From assembly GCA_963842525.1 (NCBI GenBank), contig CAWJGT010000009.1, forward strand, positions 1,568,001 through 1,632,000: a DNA stretch of 64,000 nucleotides, read 5' to 3'. Made by a program: the position numbers and the translations under genes. Source of the stretch: an uncultured Holophagales bacterium (GTDB lineage Bacteria; Acidobacteriota; Thermoanaerobaculia; Multivoradales; UBA5704). Below, piece by piece: positions 12,001-47,640 of the stretch (positions are counted from its first letter, which is position 1; each line of letters opens with the position of its first letter). Under the pieces are notes generated by a model that saw nothing but the letters and a program-made list of their open reading frames with translations, did no database searches and was not told where the DNA came from.

Positions 12001-14400
12001 CGGCTGTGGCTCGTCGATCAGCTCGATCCCGGCAACCCGGCCTACAACATGCCGCTGGCGCTGCGCCTCCAGGGCCACCTGGACGCCGGAGCGCTCGCCG
12101 TGGCGCTCGGCCAGGTGGTGGCCCGGCACGAGGTGCTGCGCACCACCTTCGGGATCGCCGGGGGCCAGCCGGTGCAGGTCGTGCACCCGGTCGGTTCGCC
12201 GCTCGTGCCGGGCGTCGACCTGGGCGCCCTGGAGCCGGGGGAGCGCGAGGAGGAGCTGGCGCGGCTCCTGCGCGAAGGCGCCGCGGCCCCCTTCGACTTG
12301 GCGCGCGGGCCGCTCTGGCGCGTCGTCCTGTTCCGCCTGGCGCCGCGGGAGCACGCCCTGTTCTGCAACCTCCACCACATCGTCCATGACGAATGGTCGA
12401 CGGGGATCCTGGTGCGGGAGCTGGAGGCCCTCTACGCCGCCATCCGGAGCGGCCGGCCCTCGCCCCTGCCGCCGCTGCCGGTGCAGTACGCCGACTTTGC
12501 CGTCTGGCAGCGGCAGTGGCTCACCGACGAGTTGCTGGAGGGCCGGATCGATGAGCAGCGGCGGCGGCTGGGGGGCGGCCTGCCGGTCCTGCGGCTGCCG
12601 ACCGACCGCCCGCGCCCGCGGCGGCCGAGCTTCCGCGGCGGCACGATCCCGTTGCGCGTGCCGGCCAGCCCGGCCAGCGCCCTCGCCCGCCTGGGGCGCG
12701 AGGAGACCGCCAGCCCGTTCATGGTCCTGCTGGCGGCGCTCAAGGCCTTCCTCTACCCGTACAGCGACCGCTCGTCCGTGGCGGTGGGGACCGACTTCGC
12801 GGGGCGGGGGCGGCTTGAGGTCGAAGGCCTGCTCGGCTTCTTCGTCAACGTCCTGCTGCTCCACACCGATCTCGGCGGGGACCCCAGCTTCCGGGAGGTG
12901 GTGCGCCGGGTGCGCTCCTCCACCCTGGAGGCCTACGCGGACCAGGACCTGCCTTTCGAGCGCGTGATCGCGGGCCTCCAGCCGCAGCGGGAGTCGGGGG
13001 TCCCCGGCGTCCAGGTCCTGTTCGTCCTCAGGAGCCCCGAGAGCGCCAGGCTGCGGCTGCCCGAGGTGGACGCCGCCCAGATCCCCCTGCTGCGGGACAC
13101 CTGCAAGTTCGACCTGGTGCTGGTCGTCGACGCCGGCGAGGAGGAGATCACCGGCGCCCTGTCCTACAGCACCGATCTGTTCGACGGCGGCACCGCGGAC
13201 CGTATCGCCCGGCAGCTCGAGGGCTTCCTGGTCGCGGTCGCCGCCGGCCCCGAGATCCGTCTCGGTCCATTGCACGAAAGACAGCAGATCTTCACCCAGG
13301 AAAGGGGGTCCGGCATGTCCGGCGAGATGGAGGAGAGGGACGGCAGCCCGCGTCCCAAGACCACGTTCAAGAGGCGCAGCGGCAGCCGCAGAGGGGGGGT
13401 CGACCTCTCCCGGATGGACCTCGTGCGGCTGGGGGAGATGAGCCCCGGGCAAACCCTGCCTCTCCTCGTCGAGCCTAACGGCCTGGAACTCGACCTCGCC
13501 GAATGGCTGGCGGCCAATCGCGAGCTTCTGGAGAGCCGGCTGGCGTCCCACGGCGCCGTGCTGTTCCGCGGCTTCGGCATCCGCTCCGCCGCGGCCTTCG
13601 AGCGCTGCGCCCAGGTGCTCTGCCCCGAGCTCTACGGCGAATACGGGGACCTCCCCCGCGAGCAGTTCGGCGAGAAGATCTACTCCTCGACGCCCTATCC
13701 GCCGGATCAGCCGATCCTGTTCCACAACGAGAGCTCGCAGATGCACCTCTGGCCGCTGCGGCAGTTCTTCTGCTGCCTGACGGCGGCCCGGGAAGGTGGG
13801 GAGACGCCGCTCGCCGACGGCCGCGAGGTCTACCGCCGGCTGGATCCGGCGCTGGCGCGCCGGTTCGCGGAGAAGGGCCTGCTCTACGTGCGCAACTTCT
13901 CCGACGGCCTCGACATCGACTGGCGGGAGTTCTTCCGCAGCTCCGATCCGGACACGGTTGAGGCGTACTGCCAGAGCGCCTGCATCTCCTGCGAGTGGGG
14001 CGACGGGTTCCTGCGCACCCGCAAGCTCGCCCCCGCCGTGGCGGCCCATCCGAGGACCGGCGAGACGGTGTTCTTCAACCAGATCCTGGCTCACCACATC
14101 TCGTGCCTGCCGCACGAGGTGCAGGAGTCGCTGCGCTCGCTGTTCCGCGAGGACCTCCTGCCGCGCAACGTCTACTACGGCGACGGCTCGCCGATCGAGG
14201 ACGGGGTGGTCGATGAGATCCGCGCCCTCTATGAAGAGGTGGCGGTCCAGTTCCGCTGGCAGGAGGGCGACATGATCGTGGTCGACAACATGCTGACCTC
14301 GCACGGCCGCCGGCCCTTCGCCGGCCCGCGGCAGATCCTGGTGGCGATGGGCGATATGGTGCGGTCCGAGGACGTCTGGCCCGGGCCCGCCAGCGACTGA
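1..14400 (+). CDS. NRPS, 5'-truncated: (C)-A-T-C-A-T-C-A-T-C-A-T-C-TauD, with a C-terminally fused SyrP/TauD-like hydroxylase
   Basis: 4799-aa ORF beginning mid C domain. Hand-read codes: A1 DATKIGQVAK (Asx-like), A2 NAWFLGHVVK (Leu-like), A3 DAHFMADVVK (Pro-clade), A4 DLFNNALTYK (Ala). Last C has HHIVHDEW; TauD part has FHNESS and DNMLTSHGR. Confidence 0.96.
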   Translation: MTLLAAWKGLLHRYTGQLDLTVGTPIAGRTHLQVEGLIGFFVNTLVLRADLAGDPGFQELLGRVRQIVLDAYTHQDLPFERLVEELQPDRSLSHSALFQVLFTLQNTPQERLELPGLELTALPGSSGEAKFDLSLALGEEGGRLRAVLSYAAEIFDAPTAERLVAHFTELLAAVTRDPAARLSDLPLLREAERHELLVEWNDTRRSLTEGVCVHQLFEAQVERSPEALAVVCAGEALSFGELNRQANRLAHELRGMGVGPESRVVLWVRRSPAMLVGVLGILKAGGAYVPMEAEPPRERLTAILEDLAREGEPPIVVAPAELAGRLAKQRARLVPLEGAGSRSGEENPASGVGLHHAVYLIYTSGSTGRPKAVEVEHGHLLNYLQGIEDRLRLGPGSHWALMQPLSVDACKTALYPPLISGGTLHVVPEERILDGPWLADYLSRHEMDVLKLAPSHLIALQDAVPEADLLPRQWLILGGEASRRDWLLGLRAKGGCRILNQYGPTETTVAVLACEVRADLAGGPSQTVPLGRPLANSRVYVLDAALRPMPPGVAGELCIAGHGLARGYFGRPALTAEKFIPDLFAKAAEPGSRLYRSGDLARYLANGELEFLGRIDHQIKIRGFRIEPGEIEAVLCRHPAVAEAVVTGWEERPGALRLAAYLAGTQRPSTEELRGFLAERLPAAMVPSAFVFLDTLPRTAHGKVDRRSLPLPEALREESAQAPRTPVEEVLAAVWGDVLGLARVGVEDDFFALGGHSLLAVRVVSRLREALGVELPLRALFESPTLEGVAAAVEELRRGGERPVLPPIVRVPREGPLPLSFAQQRLWFLDQLEPGSAAYNIPAGLRLRGRLEVPVLAAALREIACRHEVLRTTFVAVDGDPVQAIGAEPPASLPVIDLRALPESARAEEVRHLARQEALAPFDLSRGPLLRSSLLALAAEEHVALVTMHHIASDGWSTGVLVREIKALYEAFLEGRPSPLPELAVQYADFAVWQRGWLTGEALAQELEYWRRQLAGSPAATALPLDRPRPAVRSWRGGCRTAALAGPLTTALRQLARSSGTTLFMTLLALWKSLLHRYTGQPVLTVGIPMAGRNHLHLEALIGCFVNTLALRADLGGDPGFLDLLGRVRQVTLDAYAHQNLPFEKLVEELQPDRSLRHTALFQVMFTLQNAPQERFELPGLELTALEGSNPEAKFDLVLALRETADGLAATLVYGAELFDGSTAGRMLEHLQQLAESAAAEPGTAISRLSLLPAAQRHQLVAEWNGPGPAAEDAPIHRQVERQAAAAPERMAVRDERSSYAYGELNAHANRLARHLLAMGLAAEDRVCVLLERSADLVMALLAVLKAGGAYVPLDPSYPEERLAFLIADSQAGVDRPLVITREGALAALPADRVGRARVVRLDADAAAFADESGENLPHEGLPGQLAYVIYTSGSTGRPKGVAVTQGSLSGLVAWHGEVFAVVPGDRASQIASPAFNAATWEIWPYLAQGASLAIPKAETRSSPDLLVRWLVEQAVSLCFLPTPLAEALLAEERLDRLPLRALLTGGDRLHLGPPPGLPFALYNHYGPTECTVVATWQRVESGAEGPPPIGRPIAGTEAYIVDAAGNLVPLGAPGELWIGGGSLARGYLGRPGLTAERFTPHPWGGPGLRLYRTGDLVRRLSGGELAFLGRIDRQVKVRGFRIELGEVEAALYAHPVVQSCAVVVRGNPAEDLHLAAYVVAAAMGPAGGAELRAFLQDRLPGPMVPATFTFLAELPLTPNGKIDLRSLPDEIPDKILSTAPRTPIEELLAEVWSDVLGLPRVGVEDDFFALGGHSLPAVRVVSRLREALGVELPLRALFEAPTLGGLAAAVEELRRGSERPALPPIVRVARDGPLPLSFAQQRLWFLAQLEPGSAAYNIPAGLRLRGRLEVPVLAAALAEIARRHEVLRTTFGVAGGEAVQVIAPEPLGGLPVIDLRSLPEAVRAEEVRRLARREGLAPFDLSRDPLLRSSLLALAAEEHVALVTMHHIASDGWSMGVLVRELTALYTAFLEGRPSPLPELPVQYADFAAWQRAWLTGEVLDSQLGFWREHLAGASPVLDLPADRPRPAVFSERGGLRERRQPAEVAAALAAWGRRAHATPFMALLTVWKVLLHRLTGAVDLPVGTPIANRGRLELEGLIGFFVNTLTLRTRVAPELSLREMTARVREGALSAYGHQEMPFERLVEELTPERSLAQSPLFQVMFVLHNNPREDLALPGLTLDRLPSRAVTSKFDLTLFLTQRGDGLAEQMEYASDLFDAVTIDRWLDHFGVLLEAGLAAPDLPLGDLPLLCAAERHQLRCEWNTAAEVGPLLPVHIQVAEQASLAPERTAVIDGARHLSYVEVDRLAEALASRLDARGVATDAPVGIFLERGWEMAVSLLAVLKAGGGCLPLDPGYPPDRLAFMLADSGAPVLITKERLMSQLPAFAGQVVRVEDAEEETSTVWVEAQADAESLAYVVYTSGSTGRPKGVEVPHRVLSNLIAWQLADARVPQARTLQFASPSFDASLHEVFATLAAGGTLVVATSEHRRDPDALLAWLREAAVERLFLPYVALQQLAEAWSRAGGGEPLHLREVMTAGEQLRVTPEITAFFRSLPGAVLYNDYGPSETHVVTSWALAGDPGAWPALPPIGRPLASTSVHVLDRQSQPVPLGVPGELYLGGIMVARGYLGRPDLTAERFLPDPWSEQPGGRLYKTGDLARWRPAGAVDFLGRVDFQVKIRGFRVEPAEIEAVLLAHPAVSEAAVVVRGAGARRRLVAFVQPAGAVEAGDGLHEALWAYLRERLPDYMVPAAIVALEAFPLTPSGKVDRRSLPEIEAMEAGVPAGPRTPVEEMVAGIWSELLSVGEVGPEQDFFALGGHSLLATRVVARVRSTFGVELPVRAIFESPTLAGFAAVVAAGLRSGTGLVAPPTIERADRRQPLPLSFAQQRLWFLAQLEPGSAAYNLPAGLRLTGRLVVPALAAALAEIARRHEVLRTTIATVGGEAVQVVAPEPPGSLPCVDLRGLPAAAREEEVRRLARQEALAPFDLSRGPLLRNSLLSLAADEHVVLVTMHHIASDGWSMGVLTRELKALYEAFVGGQPSPLPELSVQYADFAVWQRGWLSGTVLAAELEHWRRQLAGAPAATELPLDRPRPAVRSWRGGLRTLALPAATSAALVSLARSSGATLFMTLLAAWQSLLHRYTGQLDLTAGTPIAGRNHLQLEGLIGCFVNTLVLRTDLGGDPGFLELVGRLRQVTLDAYAHQDLPFEKLVEELQPDRNLSHSALFQVMFILQNTPQERLELPGLEMAALGGQGLEAKFDLTVAVTEEGGRLRAALGYAAELFDGATAERLLGHFAELLGAAVLEPSARLSELPLLPAEQRWQLLGEWNDRPGEAPPRACLHELFATQARRTPNAVALVDGTRRVSFGELDEWSDALASALLERGLGDGAQVGFFVERGAAMVAALLGVLKAGSAYVPLDPAYPRERLCRMLEGSGVAAVLTQEALRELLPAGAPSLTLEELGVGGRGRKRGIVAPESLAYVIYTSGSTGRPKGVGIEHRSAAELLAWAASAYSREEIAGVLAVTSICFDLSVFELFVPLSLGGTVILARDALALPELPAWGEVTLINTVPSAMAELVRQGAVPSSVRTVNLAGEPLRNDLAQAIHAAGGAGVRRVLNLYGPSEDTTYSTGAEVVPGSRREPSIGRPLLRTQAYLVDPSGGAVPLGGAGELWLGSASLARGYLGHPELTAERFVPDPFGVQPGRRLYRTGDLARFRTDGELEYLGRVDQQVKVRGFRIELGEVEVALGQHPDVREAIAGIVESAPGEKRLVAWVAAGVPGEPLAPRLRSHLRALLPEPMVPSLFVEVDALPRLPNGKVDRRALASLAAREEARPAGDGRAPRTAEEELLATLWAGVLGREAVGLHDNFFDLGGHSLLAMRIVTRASEAFGIEVPLRWLFEQPTVADLARRVAAARSEERGLLLPCIAPVPRTGPLPLSFAQERLWLVDQLDPGNPAYNMPLALRLQGHLDAGALAVALGQVVARHEVLRTTFGIAGGQPVQVVHPVGSPLVPGVDLGALEPGEREEELARLLREGAAAPFDLARGPLWRVVLFRLAPREHALFCNLHHIVHDEWSTGILVRELEALYAAIRSGRPSPLPPLPVQYADFAVWQRQWLTDELLEGRIDEQRRRLGGGLPVLRLPTDRPRPRRPSFRGGTIPLRVPASPASALARLGREETASPFMVLLAALKAFLYPYSDRSSVAVGTDFAGRGRLEVEGLLGFFVNVLLLHTDLGGDPSFREVVRRVRSSTLEAYADQDLPFERVIAGLQPQRESGVPGVQVLFVLRSPESARLRLPEVDAAQIPLLRDTCKFDLVLVVDAGEEEITGALSYSTDLFDGGTADRIARQLEGFLVAVAAGPEIRLGPLHERQQIFTQERGSGMSGEMEERDGSPRPKTTFKRRSGSRRGGVDLSRMDLVRLGEMSPGQTLPLLVEPNGLELDLAEWLAANRELLESRLASHGAVLFRGFGIRSAAAFERCAQVLCPELYGEYGDLPREQFGEKIYSSTPYPPDQPILFHNESSQMHLWPLRQFFCCLTAAREGGETPLADGREVYRRLDPALARRFAEKGLLYVRNFSDGLDIDWREFFRSSDPDTVEAYCQSACISCEWGDGFLRTRKLAPAVAAHPRTGETVFFNQILAHHISCLPHEVQESLRSLFREDLLPRNVYYGDGSPIEDGVVDEIRALYEEVAVQFRWQEGDMIVVDNMLTSHGRRPFAGPRQILVAMGDMVRSEDVWPGPASD
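2161..2990 (+). repeat. T-C(N-lobe) coding segment repeated with high nucleotide identity at about 5338-6160; the C portion recurs at about 8815-9360
   Basis: Long near-identical runs, e.g. gtccgggtggtctctcgcctgcgcgaggcgctcggggtggagctgccgctgcg and gacgatgcaccacatcgcgagcgacgg, recur in the successive modules. Confidence 0.85.
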
Positions 14401-16622: not shown

Positions 16623-16654
16623 TTGTGCCCTCGGCGAAGACTTAGAGGGTGTTT

Positions 16655-19600
16655 ATGGATAACCAACCGGCAGCGGGTTTCCCGCTCACCGAAAGCCAGC
16701 GGAGGCTCTGGTCCCTACGTCAGCAGGGGCTGGCGCCGCGAATTGCCTGCCTCGTTGATCTGATCGGAGAGTTCGAGCCCCAACTGGTGCGTAGAGCGAT
16801 AGAGCAGGTGGTACTGCGCCACGAGATGCTACGCACTGGTTTTCTGCGCAGGCCTGGGATGAGATTCCCGCTCCAAGTGCCGCGGGAGGCAGTGGCGGCT
16901 GGTTGGCTGGAGGTAGATCTTACAGAGGCGACAACTCCGGCGGCTGGCGACCGCTTCGAGGAACTCTGGCACCGCGAGCTGGTCTATGCGGCGGATCGCG
17001 AGGACGACCTCCTGAGGGCCGTGTTGATCACAAGGACGGGGAGCTGCTCCCTCTTGATCAGTGTGCCTTCCCTCTGCGCCGATGTTTTCTCACTGCGGCG
17101 GATCGTTGAGGAGGTGGCCCAAGTCTGCGCCGGCGGCGTGGAGGGCCTCGAAGACCCCGTGCCCTATCTCGACGTCGTTGAATGGCAGGGGAAACTGCTC
17201 ACTGGGAACGATGAGGAAGCTACCCGTGGGCGCGCCTTCTGGCGTCGGCAGGACCTCGGGGCGCTTCAGGCGCCATCTCTGCCATTCGAGGGCGGCTCCG
17301 GCCCTGCGCTCCGCGAGGACCGTGATGTGGTCCCCGCGCGAGTCAGCGTAGACACCGCATACGAGCTCCGTGCGGAGCTGTATACGGCTGCCGAGCGGCA
17401 TGGCGTCTCCCGCGTGGAGATCTTGCGTCTGGCTTGGCGGGTTCTGCTGGCACGCCTGTCAGGAGAGTCTACGTTCCTCCTCCACGAGCTCTTTGACGGT
17501 CGTAGCGACGAGCAACTCCTGTCCATGGTCGGCCCCTTATCACGCTGGATCCCACAGCGCGTTGAGGAGGTGGAAGACCACACTCTGGAGGAGGCTCTCC
17601 GCCGGGTCGGACGGCTCCATGTCGACTCCGAGGTCTGGCAACACCACCTGGAGTGGCCTGCGGAGGCCAATCCCGCGGTGGATGAGGCCATGGTGGGGTT
17701 CGTGGTTGAGTCCTGGCCCAGGTTCTCCGCCGGTGCGGGCCGGGCTCTCGCGGTGCGCCGTCGGCAGTCGTGGAGTGAGCCCTTTAAGCTCGTGCTCTGT
17801 TGTCTCGAGCTCGGAGAAGATCTGGCGGTCGAGCTGCATTATGACGCGAGTCGCCTGTCCCGGCCGGACGTGGAGCACACGGCGGCGCAGCTCGCCGTGC
17901 TTCTTGCGGGACTGAGCTCCGTCGAGCCTCGCTTGCGGCGGCTCTCTCTCACCGGCGAATCCGAAAGCCGAGTCCTGGCGCAGCTCTGCCGCGGAGAAGC
18001 GCTTCGGATCCCTGGGCAGCCGGTCCATCGTCTGATCGAGGCCCAGGCGGCGCTGATTCCGTTGGCGCCGGCGGTGATCTATGAAGATCTGGTCCTGTCC
18101 TACGGTGACCTTAATACCCGAGCCAACCAGCTCGGTCGTGTCCTTCGGCGCTTGGGCGTTACGCCCGACACTCCGGTGGCACTTTTTGTCGGACGCTCGC
18201 CCGAGCTGATGGTCGGGATGCTTGCGATCCTGAAGGCCGGCGGGGCCTACGTCCCCCTCGACGCTGCGCAGCCGAACCGCCGGCTTTCGATGGAGTTGGA
18301 CGACTTGGGGGTGCGGGTCATTGTTACGGAGAACGGTCTAGCCTCTCGGCTGTCCGATTTCCCCGGCGCGGTGGTCCGCATCGATGGCGACCAGGAGGAG
18401 ATCTCATGCGAGCCGAGGGTGGATCTCGAAAGGGGAAGCCTGCCGGAGAACCTCGCTTACATCATCTTCACCTCGGGGTCGACAGGCCGCTCCAAGGGGG
18501 TGGCCGTGGAGCACCGGCAGCTCCTCAATTACATTGAAGGGATCCGGACCCGGCTCAGCCTGGGGACGGGTTGGAGCTACGCCAACGTGTCCACGTTCGC
18601 GGCGGACCTTGGGAACACCACGGTATTCCCTGCGCTGACGAGCGGTGGCTGCCTGCACCTCGTCGCGCAGGAGAGGACTGCGGACCCCGCAGGCATGGTC
18701 GAGTATTTCGAACGGCACCCGGTGGACTGCCTGAAGATCGTGCCGACCCACCTGGAGGCCCTACACGCGATGGCCGAGCCGGAGCGCCTGCTGCCGCGCC
18801 GTCGCCTGGTACTGGGAGGGGAGGCCTCAAAGGTCCGGCATAGCGAGGAGCTGTCGCGGATTGCGGGGGAATGCCGGGTCTTCAACCACTACGGCCCGTC
18901 GGAAACCACCGTCGGCGTGCTCACGTACCCAGTGCCCACAGCCCTTGACAGCCGCTGCCGAACGCTCCCCATCGGCAGCCCGCTCCCCAACACCAGCGTC
19001 TATCTCCTCGACCGTGAAGGCAAGCGAGTGTCGGTCTGGGAGCCGGGAGAGATCCACATAGGCGGTGCCAGCGTGTCGCGCGGGTACTTCGGGCGTCCGG
19101 AGCTGACCGCCGAGAGCTTCGTGCCAGACCCCTTCGCGACGGAGCTGGGAATGCGGATGTACCGGACGGGGGACCTCGCCCGACTCCTGCCGGAAGGGAG
19201 TATCGAGTTCCTCGGTCGTCGCGACCACCAAGTCAAGTTCCATGGCTTCCGGGTGGAGCTCAACGAGATCCGGACACTGCTGAACACGCACCCGCAAATC
19301 CGCGACAGTGTGGTGCAGGCGATACGCGACCGGAATGGCCGCGACGCCCTGATCGCCTACTACGTCTCCCGCCAAGAGCTGGAGTTCGGCTCGCTGCGCG
19401 CCTGGCTCGCCCAGAGACTCGCCGAGGTGATCCTCCCCAACTTCTTCGTCCATCTGCGCAAGCTCCCTCTCACTCTGAACGGCAAGATCAACTATCAGGC
19501 GCTTCCCGGCATCGAAGAGGCCAAGCAGCAGGCGCGGAGCTCCTTCATCGCGCCGCGCACCGAGACCGAAGAGGAGGTGGCGAGAATCTGGTCCGAGGTT

Positions 19601-20002
19601 CTGGGTATCCATCCTGTAGGTGTAGGGGCCAATTTCTTCGAGCTCGGCGGGCACTCGCTCCTGGCCACCCGCATTATCTCCCGGCTGCGTGAGAGGTATC
19701 AGATCGACCTGCCGCTACGCGCGATCTTCGACACGCCAACCGTGGCGGCCCTTTCACGGTCCGTTGAGGCGCGGGCGGCGTCGGCCGCGGTGCCGCTGGC
19801 CGGCATGGGAGCGGAGCGGAGCATTGAGGACGATCTGGCCGAGTTGGAAGGGATCACGGATGAGCAAGCGCAAATCCTTCTTGAAGGCGCCGCTGATCAC
19901 CCCCAAGCGATCCCCGCGATGAAGGAGGCGATTCATCGACTTGCAGCGCTATCGTCCGGAGAAGCTTGCGCTTCCGCCACCGGAGAGATCCAGGATGAGT
20001 GA
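16655..20002 (+). CDS. Single-module NRPS: degenerate C (interface domain)-A(Asp)-T
   Basis: HHxxxDG is replaced by PSLCADV; code DLTKVGHVGK (Asp); GGHSL carrier; acidic docking-like tail. ATG 16655 preferred over GTG 16649. Confidence 0.92.
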   Translation: MDNQPAAGFPLTESQRRLWSLRQQGLAPRIACLVDLIGEFEPQLVRRAIEQVVLRHEMLRTGFLRRPGMRFPLQVPREAVAAGWLEVDLTEATTPAAGDRFEELWHRELVYAADREDDLLRAVLITRTGSCSLLISVPSLCADVFSLRRIVEEVAQVCAGGVEGLEDPVPYLDVVEWQGKLLTGNDEEATRGRAFWRRQDLGALQAPSLPFEGGSGPALREDRDVVPARVSVDTAYELRAELYTAAERHGVSRVEILRLAWRVLLARLSGESTFLLHELFDGRSDEQLLSMVGPLSRWIPQRVEEVEDHTLEEALRRVGRLHVDSEVWQHHLEWPAEANPAVDEAMVGFVVESWPRFSAGAGRALAVRRRQSWSEPFKLVLCCLELGEDLAVELHYDASRLSRPDVEHTAAQLAVLLAGLSSVEPRLRRLSLTGESESRVLAQLCRGEALRIPGQPVHRLIEAQAALIPLAPAVIYEDLVLSYGDLNTRANQLGRVLRRLGVTPDTPVALFVGRSPELMVGMLAILKAGGAYVPLDAAQPNRRLSMELDDLGVRVIVTENGLASRLSDFPGAVVRIDGDQEEISCEPRVDLERGSLPENLAYIIFTSGSTGRSKGVAVEHRQLLNYIEGIRTRLSLGTGWSYANVSTFAADLGNTTVFPALTSGGCLHLVAQERTADPAGMVEYFERHPVDCLKIVPTHLEALHAMAEPERLLPRRRLVLGGEASKVRHSEELSRIAGECRVFNHYGPSETTVGVLTYPVPTALDSRCRTLPIGSPLPNTSVYLLDREGKRVSVWEPGEIHIGGASVSRGYFGRPELTAESFVPDPFATELGMRMYRTGDLARLLPEGSIEFLGRRDHQVKFHGFRVELNEIRTLLNTHPQIRDSVVQAIRDRNGRDALIAYYVSRQELEFGSLRAWLAQRLAEVILPNFFVHLRKLPLTLNGKINYQALPGIEEAKQQARSSFIAPRTETEEEVARIWSEVLGIHPVGVGANFFELGGHSLLATRIISRLRERYQIDLPLRAIFDTPTVAALSRSVEARAASAAVPLAGMGAERSIEDDLAELEGITDEQAQILLEGAADHPQAIPAMKEAIHRLAALSSGEACASATGEIQDE

Positions 20003-27863: not shown

Positions 27864-28889
27864 ATGTCTGAAAAATTGAGCGACAGATTCAATCGGACCA
27901 TTGGTGCTAAACCCAAGTCCCTGTGGCTTTCCAGTGAGGACCCCGTACGATTCGAGCGACTCCTGCCGGAGCGCGATTTGCCTTTGCTGGCCAAGCCCAA
28001 CATGAGTGACATCGATCTGGCCGCCTGGGCAGCGGCCAGCCGCGGACCCGTCGCCGAGCGGCTCACGCGGGCGGGTGGCATCCTATTTCGTGGTTTCAGT
28101 ATCCGCTCTGTCGAAGAATTCGAGCGGTTGTGCAGGGCCGTGTCCCCCGTGCTAATGGACTATAGCGAGAGATCGACGCCGCGCAGTGAGGTCAGCGGCA
28201 AGATCTATACCTCGACCGAGTACCCGGCCGACCAGAACATCCCATTTCACAACGAGCTCTCCTATGCGCAGCGCTGGCCCTTGAAGATCTGGTTTTTCTC
28301 GCTCAAGCCCGCCGCTCAGGGAGGCGAGACCCCGATCGCTGACAGCCGCGCCGTCTTTCGCCGGATTCCCCCCGCGATCAGGGATCGGTTTATCGAGAAA
28401 AATGTGATGTATGTGCGCAACTTTGGCTCGGGACTGGGCTTGAGCTGGCGAGAGGTTTTCCAAACCGAGGAGAAAGCCGTGGTGGAAGATCATTGCCGGA
28501 GAGCTGACATCGAGTTCGAATGGGGGCCAGGAGAGCGGTTGCGAACGAAGGCGATCCGGCCGGCCGTCGCCCAGCATCCTCAGACGGGAGACATCGTGTG
28601 GTTCAACCAGGCGCATTTGCATCATATATCGAGCCTGCCTGCTGCAGAGCGTACCTCCTTGTTGGAGGTCATTTCGCAAGATGAGCTTCCCTTCAATACC
28701 TTTTATGGCGACGGTACGGAGATCGCAGACGAAGACCTGGACGAGATCCGGCAAGCCTACCAGGAGGCCGCGGTGTATTTCCCCTGGGAGGAGGGTGACG
28801 TCTTGATGTTGGACAACATGCTCGTGGCCCACGGCCGGACCTCCTATACGGGACCACGCAAGATCGTGGTGGCGATGGCGGAGGCCTGA
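27864..28889 (+). CDS. Stand-alone SyrP/TauD-family Fe(II)/2-oxoglutarate dioxygenase (aminoacyl-carrier beta-hydroxylase)
   Basis: GGILFRGF, YTSTEYP, FHNELSY, GGETP, WFNQAHL and DNMLVAHGR motifs. Confidence 0.93.
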   Translation: MSEKLSDRFNRTIGAKPKSLWLSSEDPVRFERLLPERDLPLLAKPNMSDIDLAAWAAASRGPVAERLTRAGGILFRGFSIRSVEEFERLCRAVSPVLMDYSERSTPRSEVSGKIYTSTEYPADQNIPFHNELSYAQRWPLKIWFFSLKPAAQGGETPIADSRAVFRRIPPAIRDRFIEKNVMYVRNFGSGLGLSWREVFQTEEKAVVEDHCRRADIEFEWGPGERLRTKAIRPAVAQHPQTGDIVWFNQAHLHHISSLPAAERTSLLEVISQDELPFNTFYGDGTEIADEDLDEIRQAYQEAAVYFPWEEGDVLMLDNMLVAHGRTSYTGPRKIVVAMAEA

Positions 28890-31900: not shown

Positions 31901-34900
31901 GGACACTCGCTGCTGGCTACGCAACTGATATCGCGGGTGCGCAAGGTCTTCCGCATAGATCTCCCTCTGCGCGCTCTGTTCGAGGCGCCTCAACTGGACC
32001 ATCTCGCTGGGCGGATTGAGGAGTCGATACGCAGTGGTGCCACGTTGCAGGCACCGCCCATCGAGCCGATCGCGCGCGACGGGGAGCTGCCCCTGTCTTT
32101 CGCCCAACAGCGACTATGGTTTCTGGATCAGCTCCAGCCGGGCAATCCATTCTACAACGTGCCTTTCGTCGTCCGTTTGGCCGGACGGTTGGAGGTGCGC
32201 GCTCTGGAGAGGACGTTGAGTGAGGTCGTGCGCCGGCACGAGGTGCTGCGGACCTGCTTCCCCAGCCAAGGAGGCGAGCCGGTGCAGCGGATTCAAGCTG
32301 CGGAGGCCTGGCGGATCCCGCTGATTGATCTCTCGGGCCTGCCCGCTGCGGTACGGAAAGCCGAAGAGAGGCTCCATGCGTCGGCCGAAGCCAAACGGGC
32401 GTTCGATCTAGCGCGGGGCCCTTTGCTGCGGATGAATCTGCTGCGGTTGGGGGAGGAAGATCATACCGCGATCTTCCTTCAGCACCATATTGTTAGCGAC
32501 GCCTGGTCGACAGGCCTGTTGCTCCGCGAGGTGACGAGCCTCTACGGAGCCTTCAAGGGAGGCTCGATGTCTCCCCTCCCCGAGCTGGACGTTCAATACG
32601 CCGATTTCGCTCGCTGGCAGAGGCAGTGGTTACAGGGGGAGACCATCGCGGAGCAGCTCGCCTACTGGACGAGGCAGTTGGCCGACGCTCCTCCGCGGCT
32701 CGAGCTTCCTACCGATTTCCCGCGGCCTGCCATGCCGAGCTTTCGAGGTGCTACGGAGCGCTTCGAGCTGGCAGAGGATCTGACTGTCGCTCTCCGGCGG
32801 CTCAGCCGCGGCGAAGGAGCGACCTTGTTCATGACGCTGCTGGCGGCTTTCCAGATTTTGCTCTCTCGCTATGCGGGACAGCAAGACGTCAGCGTGGGTA
32901 CTCCGATCGCCGGCCGCAACCGGCTAGAAACGGAGAACCTGATTGGATTCTTCGTCAATACGCTGGTGCTGCGGAGCAATCTTGCGGGCGATCCCGCCTT
33001 CCGCGACTTCCTGGTCCGTGTGAGAGAGGTGGCTCTGGAGGCGCACGCGCATCAAGACCTTCCTTTCGAGAGGCTGGTCGAGGAGCTGCAGCCGGAGCGC
33101 AGCCTGAGCCACATGCCATTGTTCCAGGTGTCGTTCACGCTCCTCAACGCACGTCGGGAAACCTTCAGGCTTGAGGGGCTGGAGATCCTCGGAGAGGAGA
33201 CTGGAAGCGAGACCGCGAAATTCGACCTCAATCTTTCCATGGCCGAGAGCGAGGAAAGGCTGTACGGGCGCTTCGAGTACAGTACCGACCTGTTCAGAGG
33301 CTCCTCGATCCGGCTCATGATCGAGCACCTCCAGAAACTGCTCGGCTCCATCACCGTGGAGCCTGGAGCGCGCATCGGCAGCCTCTCCCTCCTGACCGAG
33401 TCCGAGCGGAGGCAACTCCTCGTCGAACGCAATGCGACTCGCGCCGAGTACCCGAGGGATCGGTGCGTCCATCAGCTCTTCGAGGCCAGGGTGGACATGT
33501 GTGGAGAGGCTACAGCGGTCAGCGCCGGAGACCGGCATCTCAGCTATCTCGAGCTCGACCGTCGAGCCAATCGATTGACGAGCTTCCTACGTGCCAGGGG
33601 AACGCGGCCGGGGATCCGGGTCGGCCTCTACCTCGGGAACTCTCTCGAGACGATCGTCGCCATACTCGGGGTCCTGAAAGCGGGAGCGGCATACGTACCG
33701 CTCGATCCGGCTCATCCGGTCCAACAGACGGGTTTCATGCTGCGAGACTCCGAAGTGCTCCTCCTGCTCACCCAGCAGCGCTGGCTGGACAGGCTCGCGG
33801 CGAGCGGAATCGAGAGCTTCTGCCTGGATACGGAGTGGGAACGGATCGAGCAGGAGAGCCCCGAGAAGCTTACGGTCGACGTCCAGCCCGAATCGCCGGC
33901 TTACGTGATCTACACGTCAGGTTCTACCGGGCAGCCGAAAGGGGTGGAGATCCCGCACCGCGCCTTGACAAATTACGCGTGGTGGGCGAGCGAGGTCTAT
34001 GTTCGGGGCGAGGAGGTAGCTTTTCCCCTCTACTCTTCGCTGTCCTTCGACCTTACTGTCACCTCGGTTTACGCGCCGTTGATCACCGGCAACCGTATCG
34101 TCGTCTGCGGCGGCACGTCTTATGAATCCACAGTCCGCGAGATTCTGCGCGACGGCCAAGTGGATGTGCTCAAGCTGACCCCAAGCCACCTGGCGCTGAT
34201 CAAGGACTTGGACAACCGCGGATCGAGGGTCCGGCGTCTCATCGTAGGTGGGGAAGCGCTGACGACGGAGCTGGCGCGGCGTATCCTGGAGAGCTTCGGA
34301 GGAGAAGTCGAGATCCTGAACGAGTACGGTCCCACCGAGGCGACGGTAGGCTGCATGCTGCACCGCTTCGATCTTCTACGGGACCGGAGGAGCTCGGTGC
34401 CGATCGGCGGACCGGGCGCAAATGTCTACGTCTACATCCTGGATGAGTCACTGTGTCCGGTTGCCGGGAACGTGACAGGCGAGCTGTACATCGCGGGCGA
34501 CGGCCTGGCGCACCGATACTTGAACCGCGAGGAGCTGACGGCGGAGAGGTTCGTCGACAATCCCTTCATCATCGGTGAGAAGATGTACCGCAGCGGCGAT
34601 CTGGCCCGCTGGTTGCCAGAGGGAGGGATCGAGTTCGTCGGCCGCCGTGATCAACAGGTCAAGTTCCATGGCTACCGGATAGAGCTCGACGGCATACGCT
34701 GCGCGCTGAACGAGCATCCTCTGGTCCGGGACAGCGTGGTGACGATCCGGCGTGACGAGGCCGGCCAGGAGTTGCTGGTGGCCTTCTATGTTGCGCGGCA
34801 AGCATTGCGTGCGGAGGAGCTGCGCAGCTTTCTCGCCGAACACCTCATCGCGGAGACGGTGCCCAATCTCTTCGTCTATCTGCGTCGGCTGCCACTCACT

Positions 34901-37900
34901 CTCAACGGCAAGGTCAACTATGCCGCTCTGCCCTCGATCCAGGAGGCGCGCAGTCATCTGGAGCGAACCTTCATCATGCCGAGTACGCCAAGCGAAGAGG
35001 TCCTGGCGGGGATCTGGGCTAGGGTGCTCGGGCTCGAGAAGATCGGAAGCACGGAGAATTTTTTCGGCTTGGGGGGGCACTCTCTGCTGGCGACCCAAAT
35101 CGCTTCCCGTGCGCAGGAAGCTTTTGGCATTGAGCTGCCGCTACGTAGCATCTTCGAGGAACCGACCATTGCCGGTCTGGCGAGGAAGATCGAATCACTG
35201 ATGCGGCAAGGGAGGGCGCGGGAGACACCGCGGATCGAACCTGTGCCTCGTGGTCTCCCGCTTTCCCTCTCCTTCGCTCAGCAGCGGCTTTGGTTCCTCC
35301 AGCAGTTCGAGCCAGGTTCCGCGAGCTATAACCTGCGGATCGGAGTGAGGCTTCAAGGGAAGTTGGATGTCAGGGCTCTGGGATCGAGCTTCAACGAGAT
35401 CGTTCGCCGCCATGAGGTCCTGCGCACGACCTTCCCGACGGTCGACGGCGAGCCGCGGCAAGTCATCGCGCCCGCAGCACCGCTTGCCGTACCACTGATC
35501 GATCTGACACAGTCAGGAGGGGCCGAAGCGGAGGCCCGGAGAATCGCAGGGTTGGAAGGGCAGCGTCCCTTTGAGCTGAGCCGCAGTCCTGCCTTGCGGT
35601 GTCAGCTATTGCGTCTGACCTCCGAGGACCACGTCGTACTCGTTACCATGCACCACATAGTGAGTGATGCAGGGTCGATGGGGATCATGGTACGGGAGCT
35701 GATGACCCTGTATGAGGCGTTTCGCACGGGGGCCCAGTCACCTCTTCCTGAGCCACTGGTGCAGTATGCGGACTTCGCCGTCTGGCAGCGGCATTGGCTT
35801 GTCAGAGAGACTCTGGAGGGAGAGCTGGAATACTGGCGCGATCGGCTCCGTGGCCTGCCTCCGCTGCTACAACTGCCGATCGACCGTCCGCGCCCCGCAG
35901 TCCAGACGACCACGGGGGCTGTCCACGCCTTCTTGTTGCCCAAAGACCTTACCGAAAGCTTGCGAAGGCTGGCCCTGCAAGAGGGAGCGACGCTTTTCAT
36001 GGCATCGGCCGCCCTCTTCCAGGCCCTGCTGGGACGTATGGCGGGCCGGGAGGATATCTGTGTCGGCGTCCCTGTCAGCGGACGTGACCGGCTAGAAGTC
36101 GAAGGGCTGATCGGATTCTTCGTCAACGTTCTGGTCCTGCGGGGAGACCTCGCGGGCGATCCGAGCTTTCCGGAGTGGCTGAAGCGGGTCCGTACGGACA
36201 TACTGGAGGTTTACAGCCACCGCAACTTGCCCTTCGAAAAGCTGGTCGAGGAGTTAGTGCCGGAACGCAATCTGGCCTACTCGCCCCTATTCCAGGTGAT
36301 GCTCACTTTCCAGAACAACCCGATCGAAGGGGTGGAAGCTTTCAGGCTGCCAGATCTTGCGGTGACGCCGTTCGGGGTGGCGAGGAGCACGGCCAAGTTC
36401 GATCTCACACTGTCGCTGGTCTTGACCGCCGGTGGTTTGTCTGGAGTGTGGGAGTACAACAGGGACCTGTTCGATGCTGCGACCATCATCCGGACCGCCG
36501 GGCACTTTCAGACCCTTGCCGCGGAAGCCGTCGCCAGCCCAACCAAGAGCCTGTCGCAACTCGCAATCCTAACGCGGGCGGAGCGCCATCAGGTCTATAT
36601 GGAATGGAGCGGCGGCTGCGATGAATGGCCGCGGGTTCGAACCGACGAGCTGTTCGAGGCGCAGGTCCGCCGCAGGCCGGCAGCAGCGGCGGTGGTCTGG
36701 GAACAGGAGTCGTGGAGTTACCGTGAGCTCGATACCCGGGCAGAGAAGTGGGCCCGTTTCCTCCGGGGAGTCGGCGTCGGTCCGGAGGTGCGGGTCGGCC
36801 TTTGCACCCAGAGATCGCCCTGCCTGATCACGGGTATGCTGGGGATCTTGAAAGCCGGCGGTGCATTCGTGCCGCTGGATCCGGCTCATCCGCGCGAGCG
36901 GCTGGAAATGCTTCTGAAGGACTCGGGAGCGGCGATGGTGCTGACGCAAAGGCACTTGGCCGGAGCCTTCTCCGCGGCGGATCTTCCGATCCACCTTCTT
37001 GATGTGGACCCAGAGGTGCCGGATGGCGCCATCCTCGCCCCGGGCGCGCCCGTCGATTCTCTAGCCTATGTGATCTATACCTCGGGCTCGACGGGAAAGC
37101 CGAAAGGGGTGATGGTCTCCCATGCGAGCCTCTCCCCGATGCTTCTATGGAGCCGCGGGTATCTCGGTCTGAGCGAGCGGACTCGGGTCTTGCAAAACCT
37201 CTCTTTCGGCTTCGATTTCGGTATCTTCGAGCTCCTCACCACCCTCGTCTCCGGGGCGACGCTGTACATTCCAGGAGAGGATGACCGGGGAGATCCAGCG
37301 CGCTGGGCCGCCTTGGTACGGGAACATGGCATCAACACGGTTCATACGACTCCATCGTTCTTTCGTGAAGTGATGAAGACGGGAATCCGGCTCGAGGAAT
37401 TGGAGGTCCTCCACCTTGGAGGTGAAACGCTCTATCGAGGTGACGTGAAGTCGTTGACAGAGGTGACGGGAGAGGCGTGTGCTCTCTACAACGGCTACGG
37501 ACCGACCGAGGCGACGATCAACAGTCTCATTTTCAAAATCGACAAAGAGGGGACCGAAGGTCTGAGCGTACCGATCGGCCGTCCGTCGGCGAACAACTTG
37601 GCCTATGTACTGGACCGAGAGGGGGAGCCCGCGCCGATCGGAATTCCAGGTGAGCTGTACGTGGGAGGGGGAGGGGTGGCGCGCGGTTATCTCGAGCGAC
37701 CCCGGCTGACCGCCGAGAGGTTCATCCCCGATCGGTGGGGAGCCGAGGCCGGCGGGCGTCTCTATCGGACCGGTGATCTGGTTCGCTGGCTGCCCGGTGG
37801 CAACATCGAGTTCCTGGGGCGGACGGACGACCAGGTCAAGGTGCGCGGAGTGCGCATCGAACCGGGTGAGATCGAAGCCGTGCTCACGGCTCATTCTCAG

Positions 37901-44700: not shown

Positions 44701-47611
44701 GTCCACCTGGCAAGCCTTTCCCCTGCAGGCGAGCTCCTGACGAGCGCTGAGGCCTTTTCGCAGCGCCAGGAGTCCGGCTTCTTCAGCCTGCTGTGGCTTG
44801 TACAAGCTTTGGAGTCGCTGAACCACGCCGATCCCCTGCGAATCATTGTGGTGTCGAACGGTCTTCACCACGTGATCGGCCAGGAGTGCCTGTGCCCTGA
44901 AAAAGCGACCCTGCTTGGGCCCTGCCGGGTGATCCCGCAGGAATATCCCTACCTCTCGTGCCGGAATGTCGACCTCATCGTTCCCGAGCCCGGCAGTCCG
45001 CAAGAAGAGGAGCTCCTCGATCGCTTGATCGGGGAGTGTGGACGGGGTGCGGTGGAGCCCACAGTTGCCTATCGCGGTCGTTATCGCTGGGTCGAGGAAT
45101 GGGTACCCTGGCGCGGCTCCCGGGGGTCTGCACGCCTCCGGGAAAAAGGTGTTTATCTGATCACGGGTGGCCTCGGAGAGGTCGGACTGGTGATCGCGGA
45201 GCATCTGGCCCGCACCGTGCAAGCGCGGCTCGTCCTCACCCGTTTATCCGCCTTCCCGCCTCGTGATCGATGGGACGCCTGGCTCGCAGAATACGGGGAG
45301 GGAGACTTGGTGAGCCGAAAGATTCGCAAGCTGCGGGCGATCGAGCAGTTGGGGGCGGAGGTAGAGGTCGCCAGCCTGGACGTGGCTGATCTCCCCGCGA
45401 TGCGCGGTCTGCTGACAAGGATCGAGACGCGCTTCGGCACGCTGCACGGAGTTGTGCATGCCGCAGGCACCGTCGGGGGCCGGGTCTTTCGATCGATCGC
45501 AGAGACCGGGCAGGAGCAGGCGGACCTGCAGTTTCGTGCCAAGGTGCGGGGAGTGTATGTCCTTGAGGAGGTGCTGCGCGACCGATCGCTTGATTTTTGT
45601 CTGCTGATGTCCTCTCTGTCCTCTGTTCTCGGTGGCCTGGGCTTCGCCGCTTACGCAGGCGCGAACCTGTTCATGGACGCTTTCGCTGAGCTCCAGCAGC
45701 AGAAGGGAGTAGGGAGCTGGATCAGCGTGAACTGGGATGGTTGGCAGGTGAGCGAACGCCGAGAAGCGGAAGCTGAGGAACCGACCTACTCCGCCATCCG
45801 GCCGGCCGAGGGGCGGGAAGCCCTCGATCTGATCTTGGGGCTGGAGGACCTGGCCCGGGTCGCTGTCTCGACGACGGATCTCGAGGCCAGGAGCGCGCGG
45901 TGGGCCCGTCGCGAGCCGCAGGACGAGACCGGCGGCTCCCGGGAACCGGTCCCTGAGAGAGCTCCCCACCGCGGCGTTGCGGATACCATTCGAGGGATTT
46001 GGCAGGACCTGCTCGGTCTCGATCAGGTTGAGCTCGAAGACAACTTCTTCAAGCTCGGCGGAGACTCCTTGCTAGCGACCCAGTTGATCGCCAAGCTGCG
46101 ACAGGCGACCGGAGTCGCCATCCGTCTGCGGATGGTCTTCGAGACGCCGACGCTGGCCGCCCTCGCCGCGGTGATCGCCGCAGCCAGGACAGACCAGACG
46201 CTGGAGCGGCCCCCCATCAAGCCCGCGCCGCACGACCGCGAGCGTCCCCTCTCTTTCTCGCAGCAGCGTCTCTGGTTCCTGGAGCAGCTGGAGTTCGAAG
46301 TGCCTCCCTACAATACGTTTTCCGCCTTCCGACTGGCGGGTCAGCTCGACTTCGGCGCGCTCGCGGGCAGCCTCACCGAGATCGTGCGGCGGCACAGTGC
46401 CCTTCGCACCGTCTTCCTCGCTGCGGAGGGCCGGCCGTTCCAGGTCGTCGCTCCGGCCGAGGAGGTCAACCTGCCTCAGGTGGATCTGCAGGGCCTGCCC
46501 CGGGCCGAGCGTGAAGGCGAAGCCGAACGGCTGGCCGCCGCCGCCGCTGTCCAGCGTTTTGATCTCGTCAACGGACCGCTGCTCAAGGCCACGCTGCTGC
46601 GGCTGGAAGGAGCGGAATCCGTGATCCTGCTGGCGGTTCACCACATCGTCTGTGATGGCTGGTCCGTGGGGATCTTCACCCGCGAGCCTCCAGGTCCTCT
46701 ACGAAGCTCTCTCGCAAGGTCGCCTCTCCCCCTTGCCTGAGCTGCCGGTGCAATACGTGGACTACGCCGCCTGGCAGCGCGAGTGGTTGCAGGGCGAGGT
46801 GCTCGATCGACAGCTCGCTTACTGGCGGCGCCAACTAGCCAGTCTGGCCGATCTCGAGCTGCCGCTCGACCACCCTCGCCCGCGGCGCCAGACCTTCCGT
46901 GGCGCGCTGGAATTCCTGCGCCTGAGCGAATCGCTGAGCCGGGCGTTGAACGAACTGAGCCAACGGCTGGAGGTGACGCTCTTCATGGTCCTCCTCGCAG
47001 CGTTCAAGGTCCTTCTCTATCGTTACACCGGGCAGGAAGACATCGCAGTCGGTACCAATGTGGCAAACCGCAGCTGCGCTGAAATTGAAGGGCTGATCGG
47101 ATTCTTCGTCAACAACCTCGTGCTGAGGACGGATCTGTCGGGTGCCCCGTCCTTTGTGGAGGTCGTCCACCGGGTCGCCAAGACTTCTCTCGCCGCTTAC
47201 GAGCACCAGGATCTCCCTTTCGAGAGGGTCGTTGAGGAGCTGCGGCCGGAGCGGAACCCCGGCCGGCCACCCCTGTGTCAGATCCTGTTCGTTCTCCAGG
47301 TCGCCGCACAGCAGGAGCTGCGCCTGCCTGGACTGTCCATCGCGCCTTTCAGGACCCCAAGGAGGAGCGCGGCTTTCGATCTGCTGCTGAACATGAGAGA
47401 GGACGAGCAGTCCTTGAGTGGCACTCTGGAATACAACGTCGATCTTTTTGAACCTTCGACGATACAGGAGATGTTGCGTCGTTTCACCAAGCTCCTGGAA
47501 AGCGTGGTTGCCGATCCGTGGCAGCGGATCTCCTCTCTGGCGCTGCTGGAGTCTGGGGAGGAAGCCGTCCTGACCAACGGTTTTGCCGACGATCTCTGCG
47601 AGATGATGTAG
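41704..47611 (+). CDS. Type I PKS/NRPS hybrid KS-AT-KR-ACP-C; one frameshift near 46687
   Basis: KS TACSTS, EAHGTGT, NIGHL; AT GHSIGE and NAFH; KR ITGGLGEVG and AAYAGAN; ACP GGDSL; C HHIVCDG continuing in ORF 46652..47611 once an extra C is removed (IFTRE-LQVLYEAL). ATGA overlap with the upstream gene. Confidence 0.93.
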
Positions 47612-47640
47612 CGGCGTCTAGAAGGAAGGAAGCCCGATCC

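Follow-up and report, generated by a model that had tools for sequence, protein, structure and literature searches.

Trans-acting enzymes that tailor amino acids on nonribosomal peptide synthetases (NRPSs) must recognise the correct carrier in assemblies of a dozen nearly identical modules. P450s do so through X domains and TauD hydroxylases through interface domains, and a further known route is recognition of the thiolation (T) domain. Interface (I) domains were reportedly described by Reitz et al. in 2019 in NRPSs that work with stand-alone TauD-type beta-hydroxylases, and Arg1 of the argyrins is said to be a B12 radical S-adenosylmethionine (SAM) methylase encoded in an NRPS pathway. Here we analyse a variant of the C-terminal subdomain (A-sub) of the adenylation (A) domain, found in an Asp module and an Asn module of an NRPS cluster in which a PhpK-family B12-binding radical SAM enzyme (rSAM) adjoins the Asp module. 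The cluster lies in a 64,000-nucleotide stretch (the window) of contig CAWJGT010000009.1 of an uncultured Holophagales bacterium (GCA_963842525.1). With a probability of about 0.65, the comparison of A domains suggests that the signature of the variant, KFHG...NGK(I/V)NY, is an inherited lineage mark of Asp- and Asn-activating (Asx) A domains and is not specific to the rSAM. The lineage occurs mostly in Acidobacteriota NRPS clusters, and the variant is used above all in stand-alone carrier modules beside trans-acting tailoring genes, which encode a PhpK-family B12 radical SAM enzyme, TauD dioxygenases or a CmlA-like hydroxylase. The A10 loop, chiefly its Leu88, is the only part of the A-sub that tracks the rSAM, and a contact between the rSAM and the A10 face, proposed from a modelled complex, has in our estimate somewhat less than an even chance of being real.

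The locus resembles the I-domain systems in that a trans-acting enzyme would work on a carrier-bound amino acid, a condensation (C)-like domain without the HHxxxDG motif is present, and TauD genes adjoin. It differs in that the candidate contact is on the A-sub, not on the C-like domain, and in that the enzyme is a B12 radical SAM. C-like domains without HHxxxDG are called interface domains in the excerpt of PMC13638107, essential in glidomide and dispensable in myxoglucamide. A tailoring enzyme docks on an A domain in BmdB-BmdC of the bacillamide pathway, where the interface was solved and the dissociation constant is ~75 nM; BmdC is a flavin mononucleotide oxidase, and the binding is dispensable for product formation (excerpt of PMC8795117). 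By comparison, the contact proposed here comes from a model only, which puts it on the A-sub, at the A10 face. CysS of the cystobactamids is a B12 radical SAM methylase of an NRPS pathway (PMC12846815), to which our enzyme has a weak likeness (9n1b, E 1.2e-07). An A8 His in place of the usual Arg is also seen in DltA (7r27; QIKMHGYRIELEEV); unlike the domains studied here, DltA is a stand-alone protein of teichoic acid alanylation, is not Asx-specific, has no radical SAM link and lacks the rest of the signature. Among the matches listed by full-text searches, the titles and abstract openings mention neither a radical SAM enzyme docked on an A-sub nor this A-sub family, and the excerpt of PMC10212144 does not mention the A-sub variant.

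The variant A-subdomain and its lineage

The window holds a high-GC NRPS/polyketide synthase (PKS) cluster with 13 A domains. A list of all 13 A8 motifs bore out the claim of an earlier, sequence-only reading that the variant A-sub, KFHG...PLTLNGK(I/V)NY, is confined to two of them, the Asp module (A8 at 19214) and the Asn module (A8 at 34640). The open reading frame (ORF) of the Asp module, 16649-20002, reads GRRDHQVKFHGFRVELNEIRTLLNTHPQIRDSVV...YYVSRQ...LPNFFVHLRKLPLTLNGKINYQALP. Its A8 motif, from 19214, is GRRDHQVKFHGFRVELNEIR, with KFHG at 19235-19246, and its A10 loop PLTLNGKINY lies at 19466-19495, where Leu88, Lys91 and Asn93 in A-sub numbering are L943, K946 and N948. The sequence-only reading had the right region with a start, 19225, that is out of frame. 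The Asn module, placed behind an ordinary C domain (HHIVSDA), reads GRRDQQVKFHGYRIELDGIR...RDSVV...FYVARQ...VPNLFVYLRRLPLTLNGKVNY from 34640, with KFHG at 34661-34672 and PLTLNGKVNY at 34892-34921. The other 11 A domains had been called canonical, which holds for KxRG (11/11) and for GK(I/V)D in 10 of 11; the exception, A6 at 22605, has GKVN. This domain (region 22605-22900, code DILQLGLVWK) carries GKVN for GKVD at A10 in an otherwise ordinary A-sub.

The Asp and Asn variants are 59% identical to each other and 36–48% identical to the A-subs of the other 11 domains, and their A-cores are 36% identical. An A-sub of the ANL type was recognised by an A8 hinge GRxDxQVKxxGxRIE and an A10 loop with the catalytic Lys (PxxxxGK), and both modules carry the hinge GRRDHQVKFHGFRVE and PLTLNGK at A10. 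The Pfam AMP-binding_C score is 28.6 bits (cutoff 24.5), and the top PDB matches are the A-subs of LgrA (E 3e-46). We scored 300 A-subs by the difference between a variant and an ordinary A-sub profile and found a bimodal distribution, with 84 above +30, eight between 0 and 30 and 208 below 0, which indicates that the variant is more than chance. Taken singly, the letters of the signature are not unique: KMHG is found at A8 of DltA 7r27, ELDEIR in LgrA module 2, and KxHG on 12 non-Asx cores of other phyla in the A-core tree set described below. KFHG also stands at A8 of a non-Asx A domain (L163 at 9973, code DAFTIALIWK); the sequence after this A8 diverges from an A-sub and resembles an interrupted A domain with an inserted domain.

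The motif-anchored specificity codes are DLTKVGHVGK in the Asp module and DLTKIGEVGK in the Asn module, and both contain the residues that assign the substrate, Lys278 with His322 for Asp and Glu322 for Asn, given code positions mapped onto the motifs and reference Asp/Asn codes that we take to be correct. A one-genome-per-species scan with both A-subs gave 281 relatives. Among the best 80 of 281, which we analysed, L001-L053 are of the K[FY]HG type, and nearly all of these are labelled Acidobacteriota, with single records of Myxococcus, Chloroflexia, and Heliobacteriaceae- and Dyella-labelled sequences. All 49 scorable K[FY/L/I]HG A-subs of L001-L053 (4/53 were too short) sit on DLTKVGHVGK, DLTKIGEVGK or near-variant cores. 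Ordinary A-subs occur on 12 Asx-coded domains of the same loci, and on A1 of the window (DATKIGQVAK).

A tree of the A-cores (FastTree, 170 rows, A-sub columns excluded) unites the Asx cores in one clade (support 94). Within it, the Asp clade (support 100) holds 24 variant and 3 ordinary domains, and the variant Asn cores, 29 in number (97), pair with a sister group of 10 ordinary ones (97). The variant thus tracks the core lineage, and this alone accounts for its restriction to Asp and Asn modules. In the A-sub tree, 50 variant Asx A-subs and one other form a single clade (96) in which Asp and Asn are intermixed, and the ordinary Asx A-subs are scattered elsewhere. The comparison of A-core and A-sub trees, which the sequence-only reading had suggested, therefore has a divided outcome, the signature following the Asx core lineage and the A-subs of Asp and Asn intermixing. 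The T domains behind the variant are barely distinct (47.6% vs 43.7%), for which reason we rejected a special T domain as the real mark of these modules; the distinctive piece, by sequence, is the A-sub.

Three observations weigh against lineage as the whole explanation. The three ordinary A-subs of the Asp clade are on cores nested inside it. Pairs of Asp-variant and Asn-variant domains (n = 696) are 38.7% identical in the core and 55.4% identical in the A-sub, compared with 45.4 +/- 6.1% in the A-sub for ordinary pairs at 35–40% core identity; the variant A-subs are therefore more alike than their cores predict, indicating either an extra constraint or an exchange of A-subs between lineages. 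Variant-like A-subs (KLNG, EIR, IRDSVV, AYYVSR, PLTLTGKLNV; score +22.9) also occur on the non-Asx core DSALVAEVWK, in L052 at 4117 and L143 at 7872; in both loci the rSAM comes right after the end of the module. We rejected a recent, local gene conversion as the origin of the L052 A-sub, the neighbouring Asn A-sub being only 45% identical to it.

The radical SAM enzyme and the tailoring cassettes

The enzyme that adjoins the Asp module was predicted to be a PhpK-like B12 radical SAM, in agreement with its TIGR04479 score of 637.2 bits (cutoff 600) over profile positions 2–502 of 504. Like the PhpK/BcpD family, it combines a score over the cutoff with a B12-binding domain (Pfam) and the CxxxCxxC cluster motif, present here in CAFSCSFC. 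Two C-terminal helices are conserved, DSMEAMDHIERLFLT (residues 460–474) and SLEIASVG (residues 516–523; consensus LEIASVP), and the LEIASVP stretch lies beyond the end of the PhpK profile at residue 513. Against the PDB the enzyme gave weak matches only. Unlike PhpK and BcpD, whose family is named for phosphinate P-methylation, this branch is found in NRPS clusters beside Asx modules and carries the LEIASVP helix. Pfam returned none of the phosphonate-pathway families on the window ORFs scanned, in which no search was aimed at such genes. The substrate atom of this branch is probably carbon rather than phosphorus, and gene order and family point to putative C-methylation of carrier-bound Asp/Asn. 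The stand-alone module would load Asp onto its own T domain, as judged from its specificity code, and, given the gene order, the aminoacyl thioester may be modified there by the fused TauD domain that precedes the rSAM, by the rSAM, or by both.

The C-like domain that opens the Asp module (C*) matches Pfam Condensation over residues 11–442 and has VPSLCAD in place of HHxxxDG, with (S/A)LCAD in related loci. A Condensation fold without HHxxxDG is a mark of I domains, which C* resembles in motif and fold.

An rSAM ortholog (59–65% identical) is present in the flanks of 23 of the 53 loci that were ascertained by their A-sub, frequently in the cassettes [TauD]-rSAM-C*-A(Asp)-T or rSAM-dC-A(Asn)-T, where dC stands for a C domain of which only the C-terminal lobe is present. 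The stand-alone modules of the variant lineage thus come in two forms, C*-A-T, whose C-like domain is catalytically dead, and dC-A-T. We searched 12 whole genomes among the 30 flank-negative loci; 9 have the ortholog elsewhere, that of L047 has a 42% paralog only, and no ortholog was found in those of L049 and L050. The ortholog is likewise absent from the searched genomes of the more distant KxHG-Asx loci L056 (titled complete genome), L073 and L080. In total, 35 cassettes (the window and 34 loci, 15 of them from a set ascertained by the rSAM) have the rSAM directly upstream of a variant Asx module.

In a taxon sample of 301 genomes from the family of one variant-bearing metagenome-assembled genome, the rSAM was found in 20 genomes and a K[FY]HG DNA pattern in 28; 19 have both, one has only the rSAM, a gene cut by the contig end, and nine have only the pattern. 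A reversed control pattern had 0 matches in the 301 genomes. The nine pattern-only genomes comprise four with K[IV]HG, one with KFHG on a non-Asx interrupted A domain, and four with a true variant Asx domain and no rSAM ortholog. In three of the last four (G595, G680 and G707), TauD, a CmlA-like gene, C* (PALCAD) and A(Asp, VKFHG; score +51 to +59) follow one another without an rSAM ortholog. The CmlA-like gene, a relative of the one at 62615..64000 of the window, fills the place of the rSAM in such cassettes. The signature is kept there without the rSAM, and as a whole it is therefore not rSAM-specific. The expected co-occurrence with PhpK-like genes was strong at genome level, both being present in 19 of the 20 rSAM genomes, with the motif alone in nine. 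Neighbours counted locus by locus understate co-occurrence, according to the table of taxon-sampled genomes, and descent from one common cluster family confounds co-occurrence. We considered whether the rSAMs beside variant modules form a subfamily of their own and rejected this, since the types of neighbour are intermingled on the rSAM tree.

The genome that contains the window has a second rSAM ortholog (~60% identical; L161, contig C3, 9109-19899), followed by an NRPS whose first A domain is Asn-coded with KFLG, EIR and GKLNH. A third relative, a 43% paralog, lies on its contig C34 (L162). In L091 (3513-5930) and L047 (~569-2450), paralogous B12 radical SAM proteins (41–42%) are fused to the C-terminal lobe of a Condensation domain, the L091 fusion combining Radical_SAM with Condensation 186–445. 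Behind each comes a dC-A-T-C module that has the code DASTVAAVCK and an ordinary A-sub, and in L091 the paralog cassette stands in tandem with an orthologous rSAM cassette. In L168 (G501:C90, ~5546-8997, minus), an asparagine-synthase homologue (65% vs that of the window) and the rSAM share one 1439-aa frame, a possible natural fusion, with a dC-A(Asn, variant) module behind it.

A proposed contact at the A10 loop and competing explanations

We modelled the complex of the rSAM with the Asp A-sub, using an alignment of 13 for the former and one of 20 for the latter. The interaction prediction score from aligned errors (ipSAE) was 0.69 in each of 3 runs, with 37–39 contacts and a predicted local distance difference test (pLDDT) of 79–80 for the partner; the best of 3 ipSAE values of the controls was 0.00. 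In a benchmark that serves only as a rough guide here, where own alignments were used, 58 of 80 solved complexes scored up to the mark, against 2 of 110 mismatched pairs. The interface involves R30 and D31, V51 and R53, residues 82–90 (RKLPLTLNG), N93 and A96 of the A-sub, and residues 460–474 and 516–523 of the rSAM. It covers parts of RDSVV, YYVSRQ and LNGKINY and leaves KFHG and EIR outside. The complex prediction that the sequence-only reading had called for was thus passed (0.69 vs 0.00) with an interface that does not include KFHG. As a model, it supports binding between rSAM and A-sub without showing it.

Among the modelled contacts with the lowest expected error is position 88. Variant A-subs whose locus contains the rSAM have L or I there in 47 of 48 cases, those whose genome has the rSAM at another place in 9 of 13, and unique copies from rSAM-less genomes in 1 of 7. 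The rSAM-less L164, L165 and L166 have A, P or T at this position, and ordinary A-subs have L in 9 of 174. H10, R20, D31, R53 and L86 are conserved whatever the rSAM status, and KFHG, EIR, RDSVV and YYVSRQ are unchanged with or without the rSAM. Together with the model, this pattern raises the tentative proposal that the DHIERLFL and LEIASVP helices dock on a landing pad formed by the A10 face (RKLPLT-L-NGK-x-N and the adjoining RD and V-R patches), an arrangement that would hold the rSAM in place during C-methylation of carrier-bound Asp/Asn. In the proposed sequence of events, the pad would be free only when the A-sub has swung out of the adenylation position, and the LEIASVP C-terminal helices would grip the exposed A10 face once the A-sub has rotated away. 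We consider the full proposal slightly less probable than contact as such.

Several results speak against the contact. An ordinary A-sub was not among the controls, and an isolated A-sub bares a face that is normally packed on the A-core and may thereby invite false docking. An independent-pairs test of Leu88 against rSAM status was powerless, with only 2 supported pairs (p = 0.5), and the pattern is therefore suggestive. Covariation between the rSAM interface residues and the type of the neighbouring A-sub was sought and none was found; the sister rSAMs of L112 and L150 are identical at the interface, though their neighbours differ. In an rSAM-based metagenome scan, unbiased by A-sub type, 80 loci were obtained, of which 47 have at least 3.6 kb downstream (33 were too short). 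The first downstream A domain of these 47 was KxHG-Asx in 15 and not KxHG in 14, and 18 had none within 3.6 kb. Profile scores class 12 of the 14 as truly ordinary; L112 (KFLG) is a variant and L152 is cut off. The codes of the 14 neighbours include the non-Asx DAWQFGLI-K, DAFGLGGTFK, DIFQFGLIIK and DARHLSLMTK.

In the strongest competing explanation there is no contact: the variant would be purely phylogenetic, the rSAM would be guided to its substrate by the T domain or by the dead C-like domain (C*/dC) at the N-terminus of the module, much as interface domains serve TauD hydroxylases, and the model would be a false positive. We regard this as a serious possibility, on a par with the landing pad. 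Among the modules directly downstream of the rSAM, 24 of 29 start with C* or dC, regardless of the A-sub type, and 12 ordinary A-subs adjoin orthologous rSAMs. The dC of L090 matches Condensation positions 188–452, such a half C domain is naturally fused to the paralogous rSAMs of L091 and L047, and C-like domains without HHxxxDG are described as interface domains in the excerpt of PMC13638107. However, C*/dC is not universal: of the modules next to the rSAM, 4 open with the A domain itself, and in 18 loci the first 3.6 kb contain no A domain. The fused TauD just upstream in the window also means that C* may serve TauD rather than the rSAM. The absence of contact also sits poorly with the complex model, which passed with 3/3 controls at 0.00, with the tracking of rSAM presence by Leu88, and with T domains that are not distinct where the A-sub is. 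The paralogous rSAMs (41–42%) lack LEIASVP and their neighbouring module has an ordinary A-sub, which weakly supports the contact and favours a role of the C-like domain as well.

The sequence-only reading in its full form held that the whole variant is a dedicated docking surface that recruits the B12 rSAM for C3-methylation of Asp and Asn. This we judge unlikely. The 35 rSAM-variant Asx cassettes, the second rSAM-Asn cluster of the same genome (KFLG/EIR/GKLNH), the rSAM in 23/53 flanks and elsewhere in 9/12 genomes searched, the motif in 19/20 rSAM genomes and the passed complex model all agree with it. Recruitment by the signature as a whole is contradicted, though, by signatures kept in rSAM-less genomes beside a CmlA-like gene and by directly downstream modules without KxHG (14/29), among them the ordinary A-subs beside orthologous rSAMs. 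Moreover, KFHG and EIR lie outside the modelled interface, KxHG is found in DltA 7r27 and on 12 non-Asx cores, with KFHG on the interrupted A domain of L163, and the co-occurrence is confounded by shared descent; the family name says P-methyltransferase only, which leaves methylation of Asp/Asn putative.

Least probable of all, by a small step, is that the variant serves every trans-acting Asx-tailoring enzyme (TauD, CmlA-like or rSAM) alike, as a general platform or through a conformational adaptation. Variant Asp modules do occur in three cassettes (TauD-rSAM-C*-A, TauD-C*-A and TauD-CmlA-like-C*-A), the signature core is conserved across all of them and the window has both fused TauD and rSAM ahead of the Asp module, but L036 has a TauD-C*-A(Asp) cassette with an ordinary A-sub at 11121, and many variant Asn modules stand in-line behind an ordinary C domain and have no tailoring gene in the 10 kb around them. 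The modules of both stand-alone TauD genes in the window (TauD1 and TauD2) are ordinary too, in line with the earlier remark that the variant does not simply follow TauD hydroxylation.

Layout of the cluster and meaning for the family

Table 1. Positions of the features discussed, in window coordinates or, where a locus is named, in coordinates of that locus.
Feature	Position	Strand	Evidence
TauD-type dioxygenase domain, fused behind the last C domain of the first NRPS (ORF 1-14400)	13477..14346	+	Pfam
PhpK-family B12-binding radical SAM (rSAM), 552 aa	14964..16622	+	Pfam Radical_SAM + B12-binding; TIGR04479
Stand-alone C*-A(Asp)-T module	16649..20002	+	translation; Pfam Condensation 104 bits, AMP-binding, AMP-binding_C, PP-binding
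Variant A-sub, Asp module (ORF residues 856-960)	19214..19528	+	motifs; profile score +51.7
Stand-alone TauD dioxygenase (TauD1)	27864..28889	+	Pfam
Variant A-sub, in-line Asn module (second module of ORF 30269-41707)	34640..34954	+	motifs; profile score +47.8
Asparagine synthase (glutamine-hydrolysing) homologue	47518..49449	+	Pfam; NCBIfam TIGR01536 424 bits
Second stand-alone TauD dioxygenase (TauD2)	49529..50518	+	Pfam
CmlA-like diiron beta-hydroxylase, extends past window end	62615..64000	+	Pfam CmlA_N 331 bits
TauD-CmlA-like-C*-A(Asp) cassette without rSAM, L164	4710-9941		
TauD-CmlA-like-C*-A(Asp) cassette without rSAM, L165	1866-7571	minus	
TauD-CmlA-like-C*-A(Asp) cassette without rSAM, L166	1474-6712	minus	

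The fused TauD domain, which lies just upstream of the rSAM and the Asp module, was found by Pfam on window positions 11950-14400 (Condensation 10–437, TauD 510–799). Behind TauD1, at 28921, a motif scan identified a second C-like domain that lacks HHxxxDG, and then a module whose A-sub is ordinary. TauD2 is directly upstream of A12, a module that starts with its A domain (code DARHLALMTK; ordinary A-sub, PRTLTGK). The cluster further encodes a carbamoyltransferase and a methyltransferase. Mid-domain breaks were observed in three NRPS/PKS frames, each of which continues in a different frame, with overlapping ORFs 28921-30681/30269-41707, 41704-46740/46652-47611 and 50534-53704/52926-56930. They split one A domain and two C domains and are either assembly frameshifts or decayed genes.

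The A-start modules, A12 of the window (51773) and those of L107, L108, L111 and L154, are coded DARHL(A/S)LMTK or DGRHLALMAK. Among ordinary A-subs, theirs score as the least ordinary (−12 to −16), and position 88 is occupied by L or M. In the window such a module comes after TauD2, and in L107, L108, L111 and L154 it comes immediately after the rSAM.

Even if there is no contact, the analysis delimits a clean family of A-subs, mobile tailoring cassettes in which an rSAM, TauD or CmlA-like gene precedes C*/dC-A(Asx)-T, and a branch of the PhpK family. If the A10 loop is the landing site of the rSAM, it would be a new solution to recruitment, beside adaptor domains, T-domain recognition and the one solved case of an oxidase on an A domain, and, as far as we found, the first instance in which an adenylation subdomain recruits a radical SAM enzyme. 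PLTLNGK beside an rSAM would then be a mark that predicts which Asx residues are modified, giving genome miners a short sign of methylated Asx in clusters of uncultured Acidobacteriota, and engineers would learn which subdomain to move along with the module.

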